Positions 2,843 through 45,067 of a stretch of DNA of 64,000 nt are shown here, piece after piece. The translations under genes were made by a program, and so were the position numbers. Each line of letters starts with the position of its first letter. The first letter of the stretch is position 1. This DNA comes from a virus. The stretch is taken from the IMG/VR virus record IMGVR_UViG_3300045988_098681; one strand, given 5' to 3'. Under the pieces are notes generated by a model. The model was not told the DNA's origin, ran no database searches, and saw only the letters and a list, made by a program, of their open reading frames with translations.

Positions 2843-3010
2843 TTTTTCGTCCTCCCTTTAGGTTTTCCTTTTCCAGCAGTTTAGGCAGCTTATGCGGCTT
2901 TATACTGTTTGCGCTCTTGCTTTCCATATATCGGCTATATGGAAAAGGTTACCATATTCACGCTATGAACGACACCCCCAAGAAAACCGTTGTTCCCTTG
3001 GGACACTTAT

Positions 3011-3039
3011 ATATTAGCACATTGGCAAAAAAATTGCAA
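3011..3039 (-). promoter_or_regulatory. sigma-A-type promoter for the leftward operon
   Basis: minus strand TTGCAA - 17 nt - TAATAT. Confidence 0.5.
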
Positions 3040-3170
3040 GTACTTTTTAAAAATTTGCGTTGATTTTTTTTGTACTTTTTTAATGCATTTTTAGTCAATA
3101 CGAAATCTTTTCTTTTTTTTTCGCTTATTATTTGCATAATATACAAATATCCTTGCATACTTATACACTA

Positions 3171-3192
3171 AAACATTGAAATTTCAATGTTT
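3171..3192. promoter_or_regulatory. perfect 22-bp palindrome (operator-like)
   Basis: AAACATTGAAATTTCAATGTTT equals its own reverse complement; lies in the divergent intergenic region. Confidence 0.5.
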
Positions 3193-3448
3193 ATATTTTT
3201 CTGAAAACTTATAAAATTGCATAATCTCAAGGTATAATCACTCGATGGATCAAAAAAAGTCGCTTAAAACGCAAATTAAAGCTCCCATGTTTTACCATTT
3301 TAAAGCTTTTCGTTCCTATTGTATCCGGTGTGATCCGATGCAATTCAAACACCTTAAAATTGTAAAGAATTGTATATGATGGAAAGATGTTGCAAGATGT
3401 TCAAAGATGGTGGATTTGGAAGGAATTGCCAGGATGTCCGAAGATCCC

Positions 3449-3612
3449 AGATGGTACATACTTCTTGTTATGGTAGAATATGGAAAGGGCTCGAAATAGT
3501 AGGATATGGTAAAAATGGAAACATCTCGCTATATGGTACATACTTTTATCTTTGGTAAATCTTGGGAAATTGTAAAATATTTGGAAATTTTAAAATGGGG
3601 CTTGACGTGTGG
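3449..3612 (+). repeat. degenerate ~82-bp tandem duplication inside the non-coding control region
   Basis: AGATGGTACATACTTCTTGTTATGGTAGAAT (3449) vs ATATGGTACATACTTTTATCTTTGGTAAATC (3531); also TATGGTAGAATATGGAAAG..CTCG (3469) vs TATGGTAAAAATGGAAAC..CTCG (3505). Confidence 0.55.
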
Positions 3613-3630
3613 CGTGTTTTTTGGTAAAAT
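3602..3630 (+). promoter_or_regulatory. near-consensus extended -10 sigma-A promoter with no ORF behind it
   Basis: TTGACG - 17 nt - TAAAAT with TGg immediately upstream of the -10. Confidence 0.6.
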
Positions 3631-3636
3631 AGAGAA

Positions 3637-3805
3637 AAATAGAATAATATGCGATCGATGCCAATGGGAGGCACGATTTCTGGAATGCCAAAAAATGGAA
3701 AGATTTGGCGCAAACACTCACCCTGCAAAAAATTTCCAAGTAAAAATTTTACAAGGGATTTTTTGGAAGGGAGTGCCGGAATCGTGCCTCTTTTTTGTAT
3801 TTTTG
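3637..3805 (+). ncRNA. candidate structured non-coding RNA (~165 nt)
   Basis: starts after promoter 3602-3630. An 11-bp helix GAGGCACGATT (3668-3678) / AATCGTGCCTC (3780-3790) encloses a 9-bp helix CCAAAAAAT (3688-3696) / ATTTTTTGG (3758-3766). A T-run CTCTTTTTTGTATTTTT follows the outer helix. No RBS for the overlapping 62-aa ORF. Confidence 0.35.
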
Positions 3806-4095
3806 GGAAAGAATGGATGGTTTACAGAAAATGGTAGAATTTGCAGGAAATTGCAGATTTGGTATGCTTGATATTATTTTACAAAATTTGGCAGAAAAAG
3901 GGGAAGAGAGGGCGGAATTTTTCCCATTAACGGGATTAAAATTTGCCCAAGTGAACGCCTATATAGCGCGCGCTCTAATTATGATTATATAATAATAATA
4001 TAAACATCATACTTGATGGTATTATATGTAAATATTTATTTTTATATTGGCATGAATACGATTTGTATTTATAATATATCCAAGGAGGTACGATT

Positions 4096-4581
4096 ATGAA
4101 AGTAGCGAATGAAAAATTAAAAAACTATCTCAACACAGAATCTAAAATTTTTGGCTATGATGTTAGCGAGGTTAACTTAAAGGTATCTAAAAACAAAATC
4201 TTGCTCAATGGCATTTCGCTTGAGGTTTGGCACAAGTTGCTATGGGGTTGGCTCAAGGAATCGAATGACAGGAGTAAAGAGGATTTCTGTGAAAGTCAAG
4301 CATTTTTTAATAAGAAAACAAAAGACTTGTTAAATCTTAATTCAAATTGTTTTGCTTGCCTTTATTGTTCAATCTTAGAAGAACTTTGGGATCAAGAATA
4401 CAATGAATGGATTCCTGCTTGTTACTTTTGCCCAATATGCGATGAAAATGATTTGTGCGCAAAGGGTTGGTATTCATTATGGGATGGAAGTTTTTATCCA
4501 AACTTAAAGAAATATGCAGCATCCAAAATTGAAAATCTAAAATGGGAATGGAAAGGAATCGAAAATGAAAATGAAGAATGA
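4096..4581 (+). CDS. hypothetical Cys-rich protein
   Basis: AAGGAGGT RBS; CFACLYC...CYFCPICDENDLC. Confidence 0.65.
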   Translation: MKVANEKLKNYLNTESKIFGYDVSEVNLKVSKNKILLNGISLEVWHKLLWGWLKESNDRSKEDFCESQAFFNKKTKDLLNLNSNCFACLYCSILEELWDQEYNEWIPACYFCPICDENDLCAKGWYSLWDGSFYPNLKKYAASKIENLKWEWKGIENENEE

Positions 4582-7603: not shown

Positions 7604-8425
7604 ATGGAAAGCAAATTAAATTTATACATCAATACATTACAATCTGAAAATACAAAGAAAGCATATAGACGCAATATCGAGTCTTATCTCAACACATGTG
7701 ATACTATTACGCTTGAATCCTACTTAACATGGGCGGCAACTATCGCAAGAGAGTCTGGTGCGACACAATACCAAAAAATCATGGCTGTTCGTGGGTTTAT
7801 TGGATTCTTGTTCGACTTAGGTGAGATTGATAGCGAAACTTACATGAAGATTAAAAAGCAAAGAACTCCAAAAGTGAACAATGCAAAGAAACTCCCGCTT
7901 AGCGCAGAACAAGTCAATGCAATCGTTCGCCAAGCAAGGACACCAAGAGAAAAAGCTATGCTTATGGTATTGTTCCATACTGGTATGCGTATTGGTGAAC
8001 TATTGAATATCAAGTTGTCCGACATTAACGCTGAAGGTGTAATCAAGGTTGTGGGCAAAGGTAATAAGTTCAGATATTGCTACATCAACGATGAAACAAT
8101 GGGGGCTATAAAAGATTATCTTAATGTTCGCAAAGAAAGTGAATATAATAACCTCTTCATCGGCAATCAAGGAAATCCAATGCAAGAGCAAAACTTTAAC
8201 AAGACAATCAAACTCCTTGCTGAACGTGCAGGAATTGATGTTGAGGCTTTGAACTTTAGTTGTCACTCGACGAGACACACAACAATTAGCATCTTGGCAG
8301 AAAAAGGTGTAACGATGCCTGTATTGCAAGAGATTGCAGGACACGCTGATATTCGTACCACAAAGAGATACATTGATAATAACCCAATGGCTGCAAGAGA
8401 AGCGATTATGGGATTAAGTTTTTAG
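7604..8425 (+). CDS. tyrosine recombinase / integrase (XerC/D-like)
   Basis: SAM-like N-domain; catalytic-region motifs TGMRIGEL, HSTRHT, GHADIRTTKRY. Confidence 0.85.
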   Translation: MESKLNLYINTLQSENTKKAYRRNIESYLNTCDTITLESYLTWAATIARESGATQYQKIMAVRGFIGFLFDLGEIDSETYMKIKKQRTPKVNNAKKLPLSAEQVNAIVRQARTPREKAMLMVLFHTGMRIGELLNIKLSDINAEGVIKVVGKGNKFRYCYINDETMGAIKDYLNVRKESEYNNLFIGNQGNPMQEQNFNKTIKLLAERAGIDVEALNFSCHSTRHTTISILAEKGVTMPVLQEIAGHADIRTTKRYIDNNPMAAREAIMGLSF

Positions 8426-29030: not shown

Positions 29031-30699
29031 GGATACATTTGCCGACGATTACTTTCGAGCGTGTGGGATTGAGGATGTTGACGAGTTCAAAGAGCCTGTT
29101 GGAAAGTATGTTGGTGATATAAGAGAGTATAGTGCAATACAAAGAAAAGTTGAATTGTTTAAGGAAAAACTTGACGAGATTGTGAAAAATAATAAAAAAG
29201 TGATTATTGTACAAGATGTAGATGTAGACGGAATATGTTCTGCAACACTTACCTACAATATGTTGAGATGGTATGGCATTAAACATTCCAATATTATTAC
29301 TCTTCTTCATTCAGATAAGACGCATGGACTTACACCCGAAATTATGAAACAACTTAAAACTTATATGACCCCTTTCAACTTTGATATACGCATGGTTATT
29401 ATCCCAGATGCAGGAAGTAATGACATTGAACAAATTGAGGAACTTGTCAACGTATATCGTACAATGGTAGTAGTTCTCGATCACCATGAAGTTGACAAGT
29501 CAAACTTAGGCAAGTTGGATTCGCTTCAAAGACAACCAAACTTTATCATTATTAACAACCAACTCGAACGAAGAACCAATAAAAGCTTATGTGGAACAGG
29601 TGTAGTATTTAAGTTTTGGCAAGCGTTGTGTATGGATTTTAATGATGATGAATATTCTTATTATCTTGACCTTGTAGCACTTGCAAACATAGCTGATGTT
29701 ATGGATATGCGTAATCTCGAAAACATTGTATTCAATAAGTGGGGCTTGTGGAAAGGTGTGATAAACCCATTCTTGCGAGCTTTGTGCGAAAAGTATTGTA
29801 AAAAGACTAATGGCATTACGCCGGAAGATATTGCATGGAATATTGCACCAAAACTCAATGCTGTATGCAGGTCTAGTGACGAATGGATTAAGAATTATGT
29901 GTTATCAGCATTTTGCGAGGTTGTGGATAACTACGATGAGGCAATTAAGGGTATCGAGCGTTGTTATAGATATCAACGAGAAACTTGTAAAAAAATGTAC
30001 GAAAAGCTCATTTCAAAGCAAAATCCACAAGATAATTACGGGAAAGTCGTTATTAAATTTTGTGAGAATACTCCATATACAGGTCTAGTTGCCAATAAAC
30101 TTATGGAATATTATAACAAACCTGTGTTACTTGTGCATGAAAATGGTAGTAAATACACAGGCTCGTGTCGTAGTCCCATCCCGATTCGTGAACAAGTCGC
30201 AGCTTTCCCCGATATTGTATTTGCTCAAGGACATGAACACGCATTTGGGGTATGTTGGAAGAAAAAGGATACCAAAATGTTAGTTGATTACTTAGAGTCG
30301 CTTGAACTTGATTATGACCAAGAACAAGTTGTTACATCAATCCTTGACCCATCAAACATTCCAACGTGGCTTTTTGGAGTCACAGAACAATATGCTCGAT
30401 GTTGGGGAACAGGGGTTAAAGCCCCACAATTTTATATCCCACGCATTAGAATTAGTTCAAAAGACATTCGAGAGCTTGGTAATGGCAATACACTTAAATT
30501 CAAGTACAAAGACGTAGAATACGTCAAATTTTTCGCCTCCCACAATGATAAGGAGGCTCTAGCAATCGGCAAGAATAAGCCGTTAATCATAGATTTAATA
30601 GGTAGCCTTGGGGTAAACGAATATAGAGGTAATACAACACTCCAAGTTAAAATAGACAAGTTTGAGATTTTAGAAGAAAGGTGGGAGGATATATGGTAA
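28996..30699 (+). CDS. RecJ-like DHH-family ssDNA exonuclease
   Basis: DHH motifs VQDVDVDG, IIPDAG, VLDHHE. Confidence 0.75.
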   Translation: MKIKQLVPQLNKDTFADDYFRACGIEDVDEFKEPVGKYVGDIREYSAIQRKVELFKEKLDEIVKNNKKVIIVQDVDVDGICSATLTYNMLRWYGIKHSNIITLLHSDKTHGLTPEIMKQLKTYMTPFNFDIRMVIIPDAGSNDIEQIEELVNVYRTMVVVLDHHEVDKSNLGKLDSLQRQPNFIIINNQLERRTNKSLCGTGVVFKFWQALCMDFNDDEYSYYLDLVALANIADVMDMRNLENIVFNKWGLWKGVINPFLRALCEKYCKKTNGITPEDIAWNIAPKLNAVCRSSDEWIKNYVLSAFCEVVDNYDEAIKGIERCYRYQRETCKKMYEKLISKQNPQDNYGKVVIKFCENTPYTGLVANKLMEYYNKPVLLVHENGSKYTGSCRSPIPIREQVAAFPDIVFAQGHEHAFGVCWKKKDTKMLVDYLESLELDYDQEQVVTSILDPSNIPTWLFGVTEQYARCWGTGVKAPQFYIPRIRISSKDIRELGNGNTLKFKYKDVEYVKFFASHNDKEALAIGKNKPLIIDLIGSLGVNEYRGNTTLQVKIDKFEILEERWEDIW

Positions 30700-31025
30700 A
30701 AATGGAATGGAAGAAATTTTTAGCTTGCATGGAACACATTAAAAAGTGGAGTGATACAATAGATGATCTCTATGATAATTACAACGTAGACCTTGCTGAT
30801 TTGTCGGTCAACTTCATTATGGACGATTTGGTTGATATGTTAGAACTAAACCTTGGTGATAAATTTGAAACAATTTCTTGGTGGTGTTGGGAAGTTGATT
30901 TTGGAAGAAGAAAAGATGGATTTACACAAATTGAAAGAGAAGATGGCAAGGTTGCCAATATTGACTCAATTAGAAAACTTTGGGATTTTTTGAATGATGA
31001 GGAGGATATATGGGAAACGAAGTAA
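30693..31025 (+). CDS. hypothetical protein (paralogue of next gene)
   Basis: GGTGGGAGGA RBS; ...SWWCWEVDFG...IRKLWDFL. Confidence 0.55.
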   Translation: MVKMEWKKFLACMEHIKKWSDTIDDLYDNYNVDLADLSVNFIMDDLVDMLELNLGDKFETISWWCWEVDFGRRKDGFTQIEREDGKVANIDSIRKLWDFLNDEEDIWETK

Positions 31026-42443: not shown

Positions 42444-43748
42444 TGAGAGTAGAAGAATGGCTTGGCGAAGATAATAAGATTGGGTTAGATATTTGGCACA
42501 AAAAGTATCAACATGGCAATGAGACATTCGATGAATGGCTTGATAGAGTAAGTGGAGGTGATAATGACCTAAGAGAACTCATTAAAAGTAAAAAGTTCTT
42601 ATTTGGTGGCAGAGTGCTTGCGAATCGAGGTGTGCCAGATAGTGGGAATTTTTATAATTGCTTTTCTGCCGGATATGTAAAAGACGATTATGCAAGTATT
42701 ATGGACGTATTAAAAGAAGTTGGTATTACGTTCAAGTATCAAGGTGGTCAAGGAATCTCCATGTCGAAACTTCGTCCAAAAGGAACAAAAATTGGCGATA
42801 ATTATGAGTCAGATGGTATTGTTCCTTTTATTGAAATGTTCAATTCTGTCACTAAAGGTACTTCGCAAGGCGGTGCAAGAAAAGGTGCTTTGATGATTAG
42901 CTTAGACATCAATCACAAAGAAGCCGAAACATTCATCAAGCTAAAAACTGATCTTGACGCTGTAACAAAAGCGAATCTCTCTATGGAAATAGACGATGAG
43001 TTTATGACTGCGGTGCAAGAGTTCTACTATGATGGGACAATAAAAACATTACATAAGAGATACAACTACAATGGGCATGTTGTGGAATATGATATTACGC
43101 CGATTGAATTGTATAAATTGATGATGGAAGTTGTATGGGACTACGGGGAGCCGGGGTGTATCTTTGTAGACGAATTTAGGAACAACAACTTTTTAGAGCT
43201 TGATAACGAGTATCAAATAGAAACTTGCAATCCATGCGGAGAACAACCATTAAAAGCTCGTACAAGCTGCTTGCTTGGCTCATTAAACTTATACGAGTTT
43301 GTTGAAAACAAGTTTACAAGTGATGTGTATTTTAACTTTGAGGAATTTGCAAAAGCTATTAAAGTAGCCTCAAATGCACTTGATAACATCATCGAAGAAA
43401 ATGCTCCAAGGCTTCCTAAAGAACTGGAGCAATACAAACAAAACGCTTATGATTGGCGTAATATGGGGCTTGGTGTATTCAACTATGCACACATGCTCAT
43501 GGCTATGGGGCTTAAATACGGTAGCGAAGAAGCGTTGGCTTTTACTGATACGCTATTTTACACTATGATGATAGAAGCCATTATATCAAATGACGAAAGG
43601 GGCAAAGAAAAGGGTAATTATCCAAAGTTCAAAGGCGGGTTAGTACAAAAGTCCACGATGTTTAGAAACCATGCCCCCGAAGAACTTTTACAAAACGGTG
43701 CGCTACATGCTAGAAATTGCACGTTGTTATCTATCGCGCCAACTGGAT
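42443..43748 (+). CDS. nrdJ: class II (B12-dependent) ribonucleotide reductase, exon 1
   Basis: FGGRVLANRG, QGGQGIS, GGARKGA, CNPCGEQPL, ends at IAPTG; the read-through ORF stops at 43759. Confidence 0.8.
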
Positions 43749-44051
43749 TAACACAATAGGTTCAGTATAAACTATTTTAATTGCTGGAAACCCCTTAGAG
43801 CTACTTAAACTACAACGTAGGTATGAAATAAAACCAAGCGTGAATGTCTGAAAATTAAGTAGATTGGGCAATCAGCAGCTAAGACTCGAATAGAGTAAAG
43901 TTCAACGACTATCCCGCAAGGGAGTACACAATAAGCAAGAAATGATTGTGGAAAAGGATAGATACTATTTATAGTATAAGATATAGTCTATTCTTATAGG
44001 AAACTATAAGCAGTTATATAACGGCAAATGTCTTGCGAACATTTGTGAATG
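43749..44051 (+). mobile_element. ORF-less group I-like intron in nrdJ (3' boundary uncertain, 44051-44057)
   Basis: ~300 nt with stops in all frames between two halves of one conserved gene; P1 ACUGGAU(43742-48)/GUUCAGU(43760-66) with terminal U.G; GNRA-capped hairpin UCCC-GCAA-GGGA at 43912-43923. Confidence 0.65.
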
Positions 44052-45067
44052 TAAAAACTATTGCAACGATGGTAAATGGCGCAGGAGGGGTTGAGCCTGA
44101 GTTTGCCTTATCCTACACTCGTAGAACAGACAATTTAGATGAATCCTACAAGATTGAGTCAAACATCGTAAAAGAATATCGTATAATCACAGGCAACACA
44201 GGCGAGCTACCAGACTATTTTGTATCAAGCGCAGACATCCATTGGAGAGACAGAGTAAAAACGCAATCTGTCATTCAAAAACATATTGATACAGCAATTA
44301 GCTCAACTGTCAACTTACCAAAGGAAACTACCAAAGAAGAAATCGAGGAACTATACTTATACGCTTGGATTTGTGGGTTAAAAGGAATTACAATCTTTAG
44401 AGATGGGTGCAAAAGACTTGGCATTCTCACAACACAAGAAGATGAAGCTACGCAAAGTGAAAAGCCTAAATCAGAACTCACTCGTGGAACCATTCTTTCT
44501 GTTTCCGACGACTTGATTGGCGCAAAAAGAAAATTGAATACAGGCTGTGGGTCTTTGCATTTTGAGGTATATTTTGATGAAGTGACAGGCGAACCACTTG
44601 AAACCTTTGTAAACGTAGGCTCTAGTGGTGGATGTGAGAAAAACTTACAATTCATTTCTCGACTCATCTCACTTGCCCTTAGAGCAGGTGTATCAATCGA
44701 GGATATTATCGACCAATGCAAGTCAATTAAACCTTGCCCTGCATATGTATCTAGGACTAATAAAAAACACGATACAAGCAAGGGATCAAGTTGTCCTAGT
44801 GCCATTGGATATGCGTTAGAGGATTTGTATGACAAAATCAAAGAACGATGCTTTGCGGATTTTGATTTAGAAGATGGTTATGTTGAACCATTGACAATCA
44901 GTTCACCTGCAATCAAAGAATCAGATAAGGTTGTAAAAACAGGTGCAGATGGTCAAATGATTATTAAAAACTCTGATTGTATATGTCCTGAATGTGGAGA
45001 ACCTTTAGTATTTGAGGGTGGTTGTAACCAATGCAAGGCTTGTGGTTTGTATAGTAATTGCGATTAA
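44052..45067 (+). CDS. nrdJ: class II ribonucleotide reductase, exon 2
   Basis: resumes (S/T)IATMVNGAGGVEPEF; TVNLP; ITIFRDGC; C-terminal CPECG...CNQCKACG Zn finger. Confidence 0.8.

Follow-up and report, generated by a model that had tools for sequence, protein, structure and literature searches.

A predicted structured small RNA gene beside a variable TGG-rich cassette between divergent early operons of an uncultured gut phage

Lambdoid and other phages carry morons and variable gene-cassette slots between conserved blocks, and the early promoters of phage phi29 are repressed by the host protein Spo0A. CsrB/RsmZ-type RNA sponges contain GGA about once per 15-20 nt, mostly in hairpin loops; to our knowledge, no sponge of this type has been described in Firmicutes. 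In Bacillus subtilis, the regions bound by AbrB and Abh contain bipartite TGGNA motifs, 4-5 bp apart and in direct, inverted or everted orientation, and these sites are clustered in AT-rich DNA at about one helical turn, overlapping promoter elements (PMC3738160, PMC3025583). A prophage of Clostridioides difficile carries RCd22, a noncoding RNA that is driven by sigma-A, ends at a terminator and lies upstream of abiF (PMC12373285). In this study, we analysed positions 3160-4095 of a 64,000-nucleotide stretch of phage DNA (IMG/VR record IMGVR_UViG_3300045988_098681; the whole stretch is referred to as the window), a TGG-rich region between two divergent operons, and compared it with these systems.

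The region 3160-4095 is probably the rightward half of an early control region (2843-4095) that is a mosaic of four pieces and includes a small RNA gene. The first piece (3040-3369) would supply promoter- and operator-like elements; the second (3370-3635) would be a non-coding cassette in a recombination-prone slot; the third (3637-3805) would be a conserved, structured small RNA gene; and the fourth (3806-4095) would hold the leader of the first rightward gene together with its promoter, both conserved. Sequence comparisons establish the variability of the slot and, for the putative RNA, a promoter, a fold and a U-run. The original prediction had described 3160-4095 as gene-free between divergent operons. 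The divergent layout stands, as the nearest leftward gene starts at 2842 on the minus strand and the first rightward gene starts at 4096, but the protein-free gap is wider (2843-4095) and is not gene-free if the RNA gene is counted. Protein open reading frames (ORFs) across the block are broken or frameshifted among relatives, and the gap is plausibly the longest non-coding stretch of the window.

Eleven related contigs, which fall into three clades, were collected by protein, DNA-pattern and exact-protein look-ups (individual loci are designated L001, L002 and so on). Alignments showed that positions 3040 to about 3369 and 3636-4095 are common to the relatives, with sharing on the left side extending to about 3290-3369, and that the slot between them, 3370-3635 in the window, has five alternative fillings, here called cassettes (a) to (e) (Table 1). 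Neighbouring genes, such as those for the phosphoesterase and the integrase, are 93-98% identical across relatives with differing cassettes, and the integrase is 95-98% identical in relatives without the TGG-rich block. Since this block is absent despite near-identical neighbouring genes, it is not an essential origin, attP or core switch, and by these comparisons it is dispensable for the phage. A specific role as attP was rejected by this argument from the integrase. As in phage morons and variable slots, there is one slot with sharp conserved borders and alternative inserts, some of which have their own promoter and terminator, as cassette (c) does here. The difference is that the insert in the window is non-coding and internally duplicated, and that its 3′ end is the promoter of a conserved RNA gene. 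The proteins of cassettes (c) and (d) matched no Pfam or PHROG family.

The absence of the block from relatives also bears on the proposal, made in the original prediction, that it is a replication origin or iteron field. The cumulative GC skew changes sign with a minimum at about 3150-3300, the DNA at 3040-3130 is AT-rich, and short repeats are phased at about 10 bp. However, the skew flip coincides with the divergence of transcription. With shared neighbouring genes taken as a proxy for the replication machinery, the block is lacking in L002, L005, L007, L010, L011 and L018, whose neighbouring genes are 93-98% identical. Regular repeats of 17-22 bp are absent: apart from one degenerate 82-bp pair, the repeats consist of units of 10 nt (2.7 copies) and 18 nt (2.2 copies). 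None of the 40 DnaA-box matches in the window (at most 1 mismatch) lies within 2843-4095. An origin is therefore extremely unlikely, and this part of the prediction was abandoned.

The piece that adjoins the slot, 3637-3805, is by its conservation and predicted fold a candidate new small-RNA family that is absent from Rfam. The promoter before it (P_nc) ranks first in the region in both promoter scans and points at 3637. Its hexamers are retained in L006 though the spacer sequence differs; cassettes (c) and (e) carry their own near-consensus promoters at the matching place before the RNA, and (b) and (d) have weaker matches only. The 170 nt downstream of the promoter are predicted to fold with a minimum free energy of -57 kcal/mol (z = -5.4; range -5.4 to -6.5 with the clades), and clades 1 and 2, folded separately, give an identical three-way junction despite 8 differences in the 16 positions of the 3′ strand of stem P1. 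On the MAFFT alignment, pairing in P1 to P3 is kept in 95% of cells, compared with 35-55% when the 3′ partners are slid. Three P1 pairs show double changes in the MAFFT register, and five do so in a hand-made register that shifts a one-nucleotide gap; P2 is invariable and hence yields no covariation. A covariance model scored 210 bits on the plus strand versus 29 on the minus strand, and this asymmetry, together with the G-U pairs, indicates a plus-strand RNA.

Conservation of this piece exceeds that of its surroundings. It differs from L004 by 3.5%, compared with 24% at the third codon positions of the next gene, and a 44-mer within it is invariant in clades 1 and 2 while the downstream protein is 32% identical between these clades. 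Coding was ruled out, as indels of +1 nt (L002, L011) and -13 nt (the L007 clade) fall inside the sole ORFs and no ribosome-binding site (RBS) is present. In the third-clade homolog (L018; 63.9 bits), the P2 stem is preserved, as are the junction and P3. The P2 loop of this homolog, AAAUGGGAGC, differs and lacks one nucleotide, a change that an RNA loop would tolerate more readily than a DNA palindrome bound by a dimer. The structural model is thus solid for two clades and partial for the family.

Table 1. Positions of predicted and observed features in and around the early control region. Numbering is that of the window; aa, amino acids.
Feature	Position	Strand	Description
Leftward promoter P_L	3011-3039	-	TTGCAA (3039-3034), 17-nt spacer, TGtgcTAATAT (-10 at 3016-3011); position weight matrix (PWM) score 9.9, best of the minus strand in the region
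Promoter-like palindrome	3069-3098		In the window TTGACT-18-TACAAA on the minus strand; conserved in all relatives
Conserved block	3132-3223	+	TTGCATA boxes at 3132, 3153 and 3217; palindrome AACATTGAAATTTCAATGTT at 3172-3191; both clades
CodY-like box 1, ATTTTTCTGAAAACT	3195-3209	+	2 mismatches; 0 in L005, 1 in L007
Weak rightward promoter, -10 TATAAT	3233-3238	+	Poor -35; PWM score 6.4; conserved in relatives
Cassette (a)	3370-3635	+	TGG-rich, C-poor, non-coding; window, L001, L004 and part of L006; 11/16 (A/T)TGG(A/T)A copies
Cassette (b)	Same slot, L002		87 bp with TTGCAA-17-TATAAT promoter
Cassette (c)	Same slot, L005, L007, L010		Promoter, RBS, 37-aa ORF, terminator, new promoter
Cassette (d)	Same slot, L011		Promoter of (b) plus 99-aa ORF
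Cassette (e)	Same slot, L018		Short spacer without ORF
10-nt tandem unit AAAGATGTTC	3383-3409	+	2.7 copies (Tandem Repeats Finder)
82-bp duplication	3449-3530 and 3531-3612	+	Both copies begin with ATGGTACATACTT
TGGNA dyads in cassette (a)	3417-3431 (everted); 3471-3485, 3507-3520, 3553-3567 (direct)	+	4 vs 0.10 expected in 3370-3635
Small RNA promoter P_nc	3602-3630	+	TTGACG, 17-nt spacer, TGgTAAAAT; predicted sigma-A; score 13.6
Structured small RNA gene	3637-3805	+	About 160-170 nt, predicted; single copy in the window
RNA stem P1	3667-3683 with 3776-3791		16 bp; closes three-way junction
44-mer	3677-3720		Invariant in clades 1-2
RNA hairpin P2 (GCCAAA/UUUGGC)	3687-3692 with 3704-3709		Loop AAAUGGAAAGA
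RNA hairpin P3	3715-3775		Length variable
U-run (U6) after P1	3791-3796		
CodY-like box 2, AATTTGCAGGAAATT	3838-3852	+	2 mismatches; 1 in L005 and L006; overlaps TGGTAGAAT box at 3832-3840
Hairpin-like element GGGC..GCCC	3910-3948	+	Encloses 13-mer TTTCCCATTAACG (3920-3932), invariant in three clades
Rightward promoter P_R	4047-4075	+	TTGGCA (TTGACA in relatives), 17-nt spacer, TATAAT; score 12.1; three clades
RBS AAGGAGG and p161 gene	4082-4088; 4096-4581	+	161 aa, Cys-rich

Searches beyond the collected contigs added little to the family. Three clade variants of the RNA gave noise only in Rfam, both at the gathering threshold and at E <= 10, and ARAGORN detected no tRNA or tmRNA. A degenerate P2 pattern, used to search for distant homologs, returned only the same five contigs, the covariance model found L018 only among 35 loci from phosphoesterase relatives, and the small-RNA pattern had 0 matches in GTDB genomes when a host or prophage was sought. 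A simple terminator scan misses P1, since its loop is longer than 8 nt. RNAduplex comparison of the conserved RNA segments with both strands of the window produced no convincing mRNA target; the best non-self match (plus strand, 2906-2945) falls in the leftward leader, on its untranscribed strand. Kissing of the P2 loop with the TTTCCCATTAACG loop, which would involve 8 pairs and a bulge, was dropped, being outside the top RNAduplex matches.

The position of the RNA gene before p161 permits another explanation, namely that the RNA is a cis-acting leader or attenuator, or an RNA partner of the p161 protein, by analogy with RCd22 and AbiF in the C. difficile prophage. The order of promoter, RNA, terminator, conserved spacer and p161-family gene is kept in all three clades, although the proteins are only about 32% identical between clades, and the RCd22 locus is arranged in the same way, with a sigma-A promoter, then an RNA of about 100-130 nt, a terminator that allows read-through and finally a protein-coding gene (PMC12373285). 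What the two share is a phage-borne RNA, about 100-170 nt long, that has a sigma-A promoter, an intrinsic terminator and fixed synteny with the downstream gene. However, the strong conserved promoter at 4047-4075, which lies between the RNA and p161, makes read-through unnecessary; the RNA has no abiF motif (RF03085) or other Rfam family and forms a three-way junction, and p161 has no Abi_2 or other domain. We consider such a cis-acting or partner role unlikely. The p161 protein has seven invariant cysteines (CxxCxxC ... CxxCxxCx5C) and matched nothing in Pfam, PHROG or, by sequence, PDB, and its AlphaFold2 model was unusable (pLDDT 48).

The feature that had drawn attention to the region was its composition. 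The original prediction had described it as C-poor, saturated with TGG and GGA and packed with (A/T)TGG(A/T)A units, and had proposed comparing the counts with shuffled sequence; expectations for 3370-3900 were obtained from dinucleotide shuffles. In this interval C makes up 10.9% of the bases, compared with 15.9% window-wide, and both TGG (27 vs 16.8+/-2.5, z = 4.0) and (A/T)TGG(A/T)A (15 vs 2.3+/-1.5, z = 8.7; 1 copy on the minus strand) are above expectation, as is TGGTA (8 vs 0.6 expected). Across the 64 kb, the (A/T)TGG(A/T)A count peaks in the 500-bp bin from 3501. The GGA count of 20 was correct, but its enrichment is marginal (14.2+/-2.6 expected, z = 2.2). Nor is the motif field spread evenly over 3160-4095, as most (A/T)TGG(A/T)A copies lie in the 266 bp of cassette (a) (Table 1) and none in 3040-3369.

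The repeats that had been noted by eye are largely real. AGATG occurs at 3385, 3395, 3405 and 3449, partly within the 10-nt tandem unit, and in L004 two units of this type are altered (AGATG at 3395 to AGCTG, and GGATG at 3432 to GCTTG). The degenerate tandem duplication has 57/82 identities in a gapped alignment and a score of 18, compared with -7.3+/-4.5 (maximum 6) for shuffles. Boxes of the form TGGTA(A/G)AAT are exact at 3471, 3622 and 3832, but the one at 3507, TGGTAAAAAT, has a mismatch. Cassette (a) would have grown by local duplication, giving about 3 copies of the 10-nt unit and 2 copies of the 82-bp unit with the TGGTA/TGGAA motifs that they carry, followed by decay, and its sole clearly functional piece would be the strong sigma-A promoter predicted at its 3′ end.

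Other origins and contents of cassette (a) were also considered. A 36-mer from it occurs elsewhere in IMG/VR only in the L001 contig, and with this single occurrence a dispersed mobile element was ruled out. Two exact 17-mers are common to the cassette and to positions 137-121 (minus strand) and 30691-30707, but extension of either match was not significant. Short collinear matches, AGATGGTACATACTT and TTTGGTAAAyCTTGG..GAAATT, relate it to cassette (c). A hidden protein was rejected: the ORFs at 3370-3558 and 3506-3871 and a 146-aa ORF called in L004, which has a stop and a frameshift in the window, lack a conserved frame and have no Pfam match. Between the window and L004, the first 81 bp (3370-3450) differ by 16%, which is near the 24% found at third codon positions, and the remainder (3451-3635) by 7%.

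An explanation that is compatible with the mosaic, and that we regard as possible though doubtful, is that the TGG-rich block serves as an operator field, in which phased TGGNA dyads would be bound by a transition-state regulator of the host, a tetrameric AbrB-type (swapped-hairpin) protein. The embedded -10 boxes (TGGTAGAAT, TGGTAAAAT) would thereby be occluded, or the regulator titrated, so that early transcription would follow the growth phase of the host. The protein-titration array of the original prediction would thus take a more specific form, with the spacing published for AbrB sites. Seven TGGNA-N4/5-TGGNA dyads occur in 2843-4095, where 0.24 are expected (P < 0.001); the spacer is 5 bp in 6/7 and 4 bp in 1/7, and every other spacer from 0 to 12 was seen 0-1 times. 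The leftward operon has 6 dyads vs 0.41 expected, and the remaining 60 kb is at expectation. Relatives of clades 1 and 2 have 3-8 intergenic dyads irrespective of the cassette and up to 16 in the left operon (0.5 expected), with 0-2 on the right side, which is not above expectation. Everted and inverted dyads are present though the strand is C-poor, and TGGNA starts show a 9-9.5-bp phasing (P about 0.002-0.005, before correction). At 3471 the dyad overlaps a TGGTAGAAT -10-like box; this 17-mer is also present behind a perfect TTGACA-17, at 137 on the minus strand.

However, the TGGNA motif has little information content, the dyads at 3471 and 3553 are the two halves of a single duplication and so are not independent, and many half-sites in coding DNA are RBS or start-codon sequence (TGGGAGG, ATG GTA, ATG GAA). 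The host possibly lacks AbrB; a search of the window for AbrB/SpoVT/MazE-like ORFs gave noise only (E > 0.6). The third clade shows no dyad enrichment, and the dispensability of cassette (a) counts against an operator-field role. Compared with AbrB/Abh sites, the likeness consists of TGGNA pairs 4-5 bp apart, the range of orientations, clustering at about a helical turn in AT-rich DNA and promoter overlap. The differences are that the spacers here are purine-rich (purely A/T in 2/7, the others having at least one G or C, e.g. GAATA or AATCT), and that the putative sites are in a phage, partly in coding DNA. The candidate arrangement also recalls phi29 and Spo0A, in that early promoters would be controlled at several sites by a transition-state or sporulation regulator of the host, with another regulator and another motif.

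The extended -10-like boxes suggest in addition that the block might consist of tandem early promoters (TGGTAnAAT), which would boost or time transcription of the small RNA and of the rightward operon, or would serve as a sink for RNA polymerase. TGnTAnAAT occurs 3 times vs 0.1-0.3 expected, TGGTAGAATATGGAAAG is also found after a consensus -35 at 137 on the minus strand, and P_nc lies inside the TGG-rich block. The multi-promoter region of the original prediction is weakly supported: full matches to both hexamers are not enriched (10 vs 7.0+/-2.8), and neither TGGTAGAAT box (3471, 3832) is preceded by a -35 element (score <=6.6). Promoter-like sites scoring >=8 occur at about 1.5 per kb per strand window-wide, the box at 3507 ends in A instead of T, and TAGAAT is changed to TAGGAT in L001 and L002 and to TAGAAA in L007. 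A tandem-promoter array is decidedly improbable.

The original prediction had also raised, as a template for a GGA-rich RNA, a CsrA-type sponge. In this case, a G-rich, unstructured plus-strand transcript of 3370-3805 would sequester a CsrA-like protein recognising GGA or AUGGAAAG. The octamer ATGGAAAG, which forms the P2 loop and is invariant in clades 1 and 2, has further copies at 3379 and 3480 (3 exact copies in all vs 0.03 expected), with ATGGAAAC at 3515; the motifs are strongly strand-biased, and the TGG-rich part (3360-3640) is predicted to be less structured than shuffles (z = +1.9). Against this, the barely enriched GGA comes once per 27 nt (20 in 531 nt), it lies outside hairpin loops except in P2, and the P2 loop differs in L018. 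Most relatives lack cassette (a), no strong promoter lies upstream of it, and no Rfam match was obtained, even at E <= 10. A putative RNA gene is present as foreseen, but its resemblance to CsrB/RsmZ, a G-rich RNA with recurring GGA-containing motifs of which one is in a hairpin loop, is offset by a GGA density about half as high as in known sponges, with GGA mostly outside loops, and a sponge is highly unlikely.

The mosaic with its small RNA gene remains the explanation that we favour, and several observations weigh against it. Transcription of 3637-3805 is a prediction from sequence, and the covariation amounts to essentially one split, between two clades. RNAalifold with six sequences did not recover P1, and the RNA of L018 ends in a local 8-bp terminator hairpin followed by U6, without the long-range P1. 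As for the cassette, its part 3451-3635 may be constrained or recently exchanged rather than decaying, given a difference of 7% against 24% at the third codon positions of the next gene. Enrichment of the dyads in itself points to some function of cassette (a), and the match between (a) and (c) is borderline (score 30 vs a shuffle maximum of 29).

The pieces on either side of the slot and the RNA gene agree with a control region between divergent early operons, as had been proposed: there are a leftward promoter (P_L), two strong rightward promoters (P_nc and P_R) and a conserved promoter- and operator-like block at 3040-3245. In L001, the aligned P_L reads TTGCAT-18-TGgTATAAT. Separately, the palindrome at 3069-3098 reads TTGAT(T/A)-18-TACAAT on both strands in L001, L002, L004, L005 and L007, i.e. 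as fully overlapping opposed promoter-like sites. CodY-like box 1 lies just upstream of the -10 box at 3233. When the CodY consensus AATTTTCWGAAAATT was searched with <=2 mismatches, the two boxes in Table 1 were the sole matches in 64 kb (expectation for the intergenic region, about 0.08). The L007 clade has an array, TGGTA-GAAAA-TGGTA-AATT-TGGGA, in the stretch aligned to 3832-3852. A 44-codon ORF would begin at 3245; its start codon is absent in L004 and L005.

In the fourth piece, positions 3806-4046 are conserved, with weak RNA covariation (1 compensatory pair and 2 broken). The hairpin-like element at 3910-3948 may act as DNA or as RNA. A related sequence, CATTAACGGGA, occurs at about 345-355 in the second non-coding block of L004 (see below), and a GC-rich near-palindrome, TATAGCGCGCGCTCTA, at 3962-3977 stands amid AT-rich DNA and is conserved in clade 1 only.

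The leftward operon has noteworthy elements of its own. Its leader contains a hairpin or palindrome at 2922-2946, TTTCCATATA-tcggc-TATATGGAAA, which in L004 becomes TTCCCATCTA..TAGATGGGAA through two compensatory pairs; its minus strand reads ATGGAAAG-N6-GCGCAAACA, which repeats part of the small RNA (3695-3716) with equal spacing. At the far end of the operon lies a second unusual non-coding block (1-480 in L004; 1-130 in the window, which starts inside it), composed of a very G-rich arm followed by a very C-rich arm and containing seven TGGNA dyads in mixed orientation. This block includes TGGTAGAATGTGGAAATAGGGCTG, a paralog of 3471-3494, and in L004 its palindromes AACGTTGGAATTTCAACGTT resemble the palindrome at 3172-3191 of the window. 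A perfect promoter, TTGACA-17-TGgTAGAAT, is found on the minus strand of the window within 88-166, with a terminator hairpin (GCUGC-GGAA-GCGGC) and a run of 10 T coming within about 10 nt downstream; this arrangement suggests a transcript of about 35-40 nt, or a regulatory site instead of a promoter.

The window is part of a large phage with genes for a polymerase of the DnaE type, a DnaB-like helicase, a RecJ-like exonuclease and a tyrosine recombinase. The polymerase shares 96% identity with that of an unannotated 'Bacteriophage sp.' record from human faeces and about 34% with its counterparts in Clostridium phage c-st and phiCD211, and the source is an uncultured gut phage of about 100 kb. 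A DNA search of INPHARED phages with 2850-4100 returned no match. The phage has the tyrosine recombinase (PF00589; 273 aa, 7604-8425) although its other equipment is that of a large lytic phage, and the enzyme has no close relative in 185,579 bacterial and archaeal species genomes, where only 28%-identity matches were obtained. A group I intron (RF00028, 73.5 bits) at 43713-44010 splits the ribonucleotide reductase gene, whose flanking ORFs match the N-terminal part of PF02867 (42437-43759) and the C-terminal part of PF02867 plus TSCPD (44033-45067).

We infer the following sequence of events for the favoured mosaic: host RNA polymerase with sigma-A would initiate near 3637 and terminate at P1 and the U-run, yielding an RNA of 160-170 nt early in infection; the RNA would work in trans through the conserved P2 hairpin and the junction, on a protein or RNA partner; and the TGGNA dyads, the source of the TGG saturation, would be sites for an AbrB-type host regulator overlapping -10 boxes, which is the least secure step. 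Two independent readings, either of which would be new, have a small chance of being correct: the RNA would found a new phage small-RNA family, forming a module with the downstream Cys-rich protein or titrating a host RNA-binding protein through the P2 loop; and the TGGNA dyads over the leftward operon and the control region would be a binding field of a host AbrB-type protein, by which the phage senses growth phase or disarms the regulator.

Under the mosaic explanation, this is a phage early control region of an ordinary kind, with a variable slot and, in addition, a new small-RNA family. For annotation, this means that the conspicuous TGG-rich block is the least conserved part of the region and that the functional signal adjoins it, in an RNA gene that has no Rfam entry. 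The RNA gene is the most conserved element of an otherwise mosaic early region, in human-gut phages without a cultured host. If it is expressed, the RNA would be a candidate early regulator or anti-host RNA in Firmicutes phages, of which few are known to us. The enrichment of TGGNA pairs at a 5-bp spacing raises the question of whether the early programme of the phage is tied to a host transition-state regulator, and the CodY-like boxes raise a parallel question for the nutritional state.

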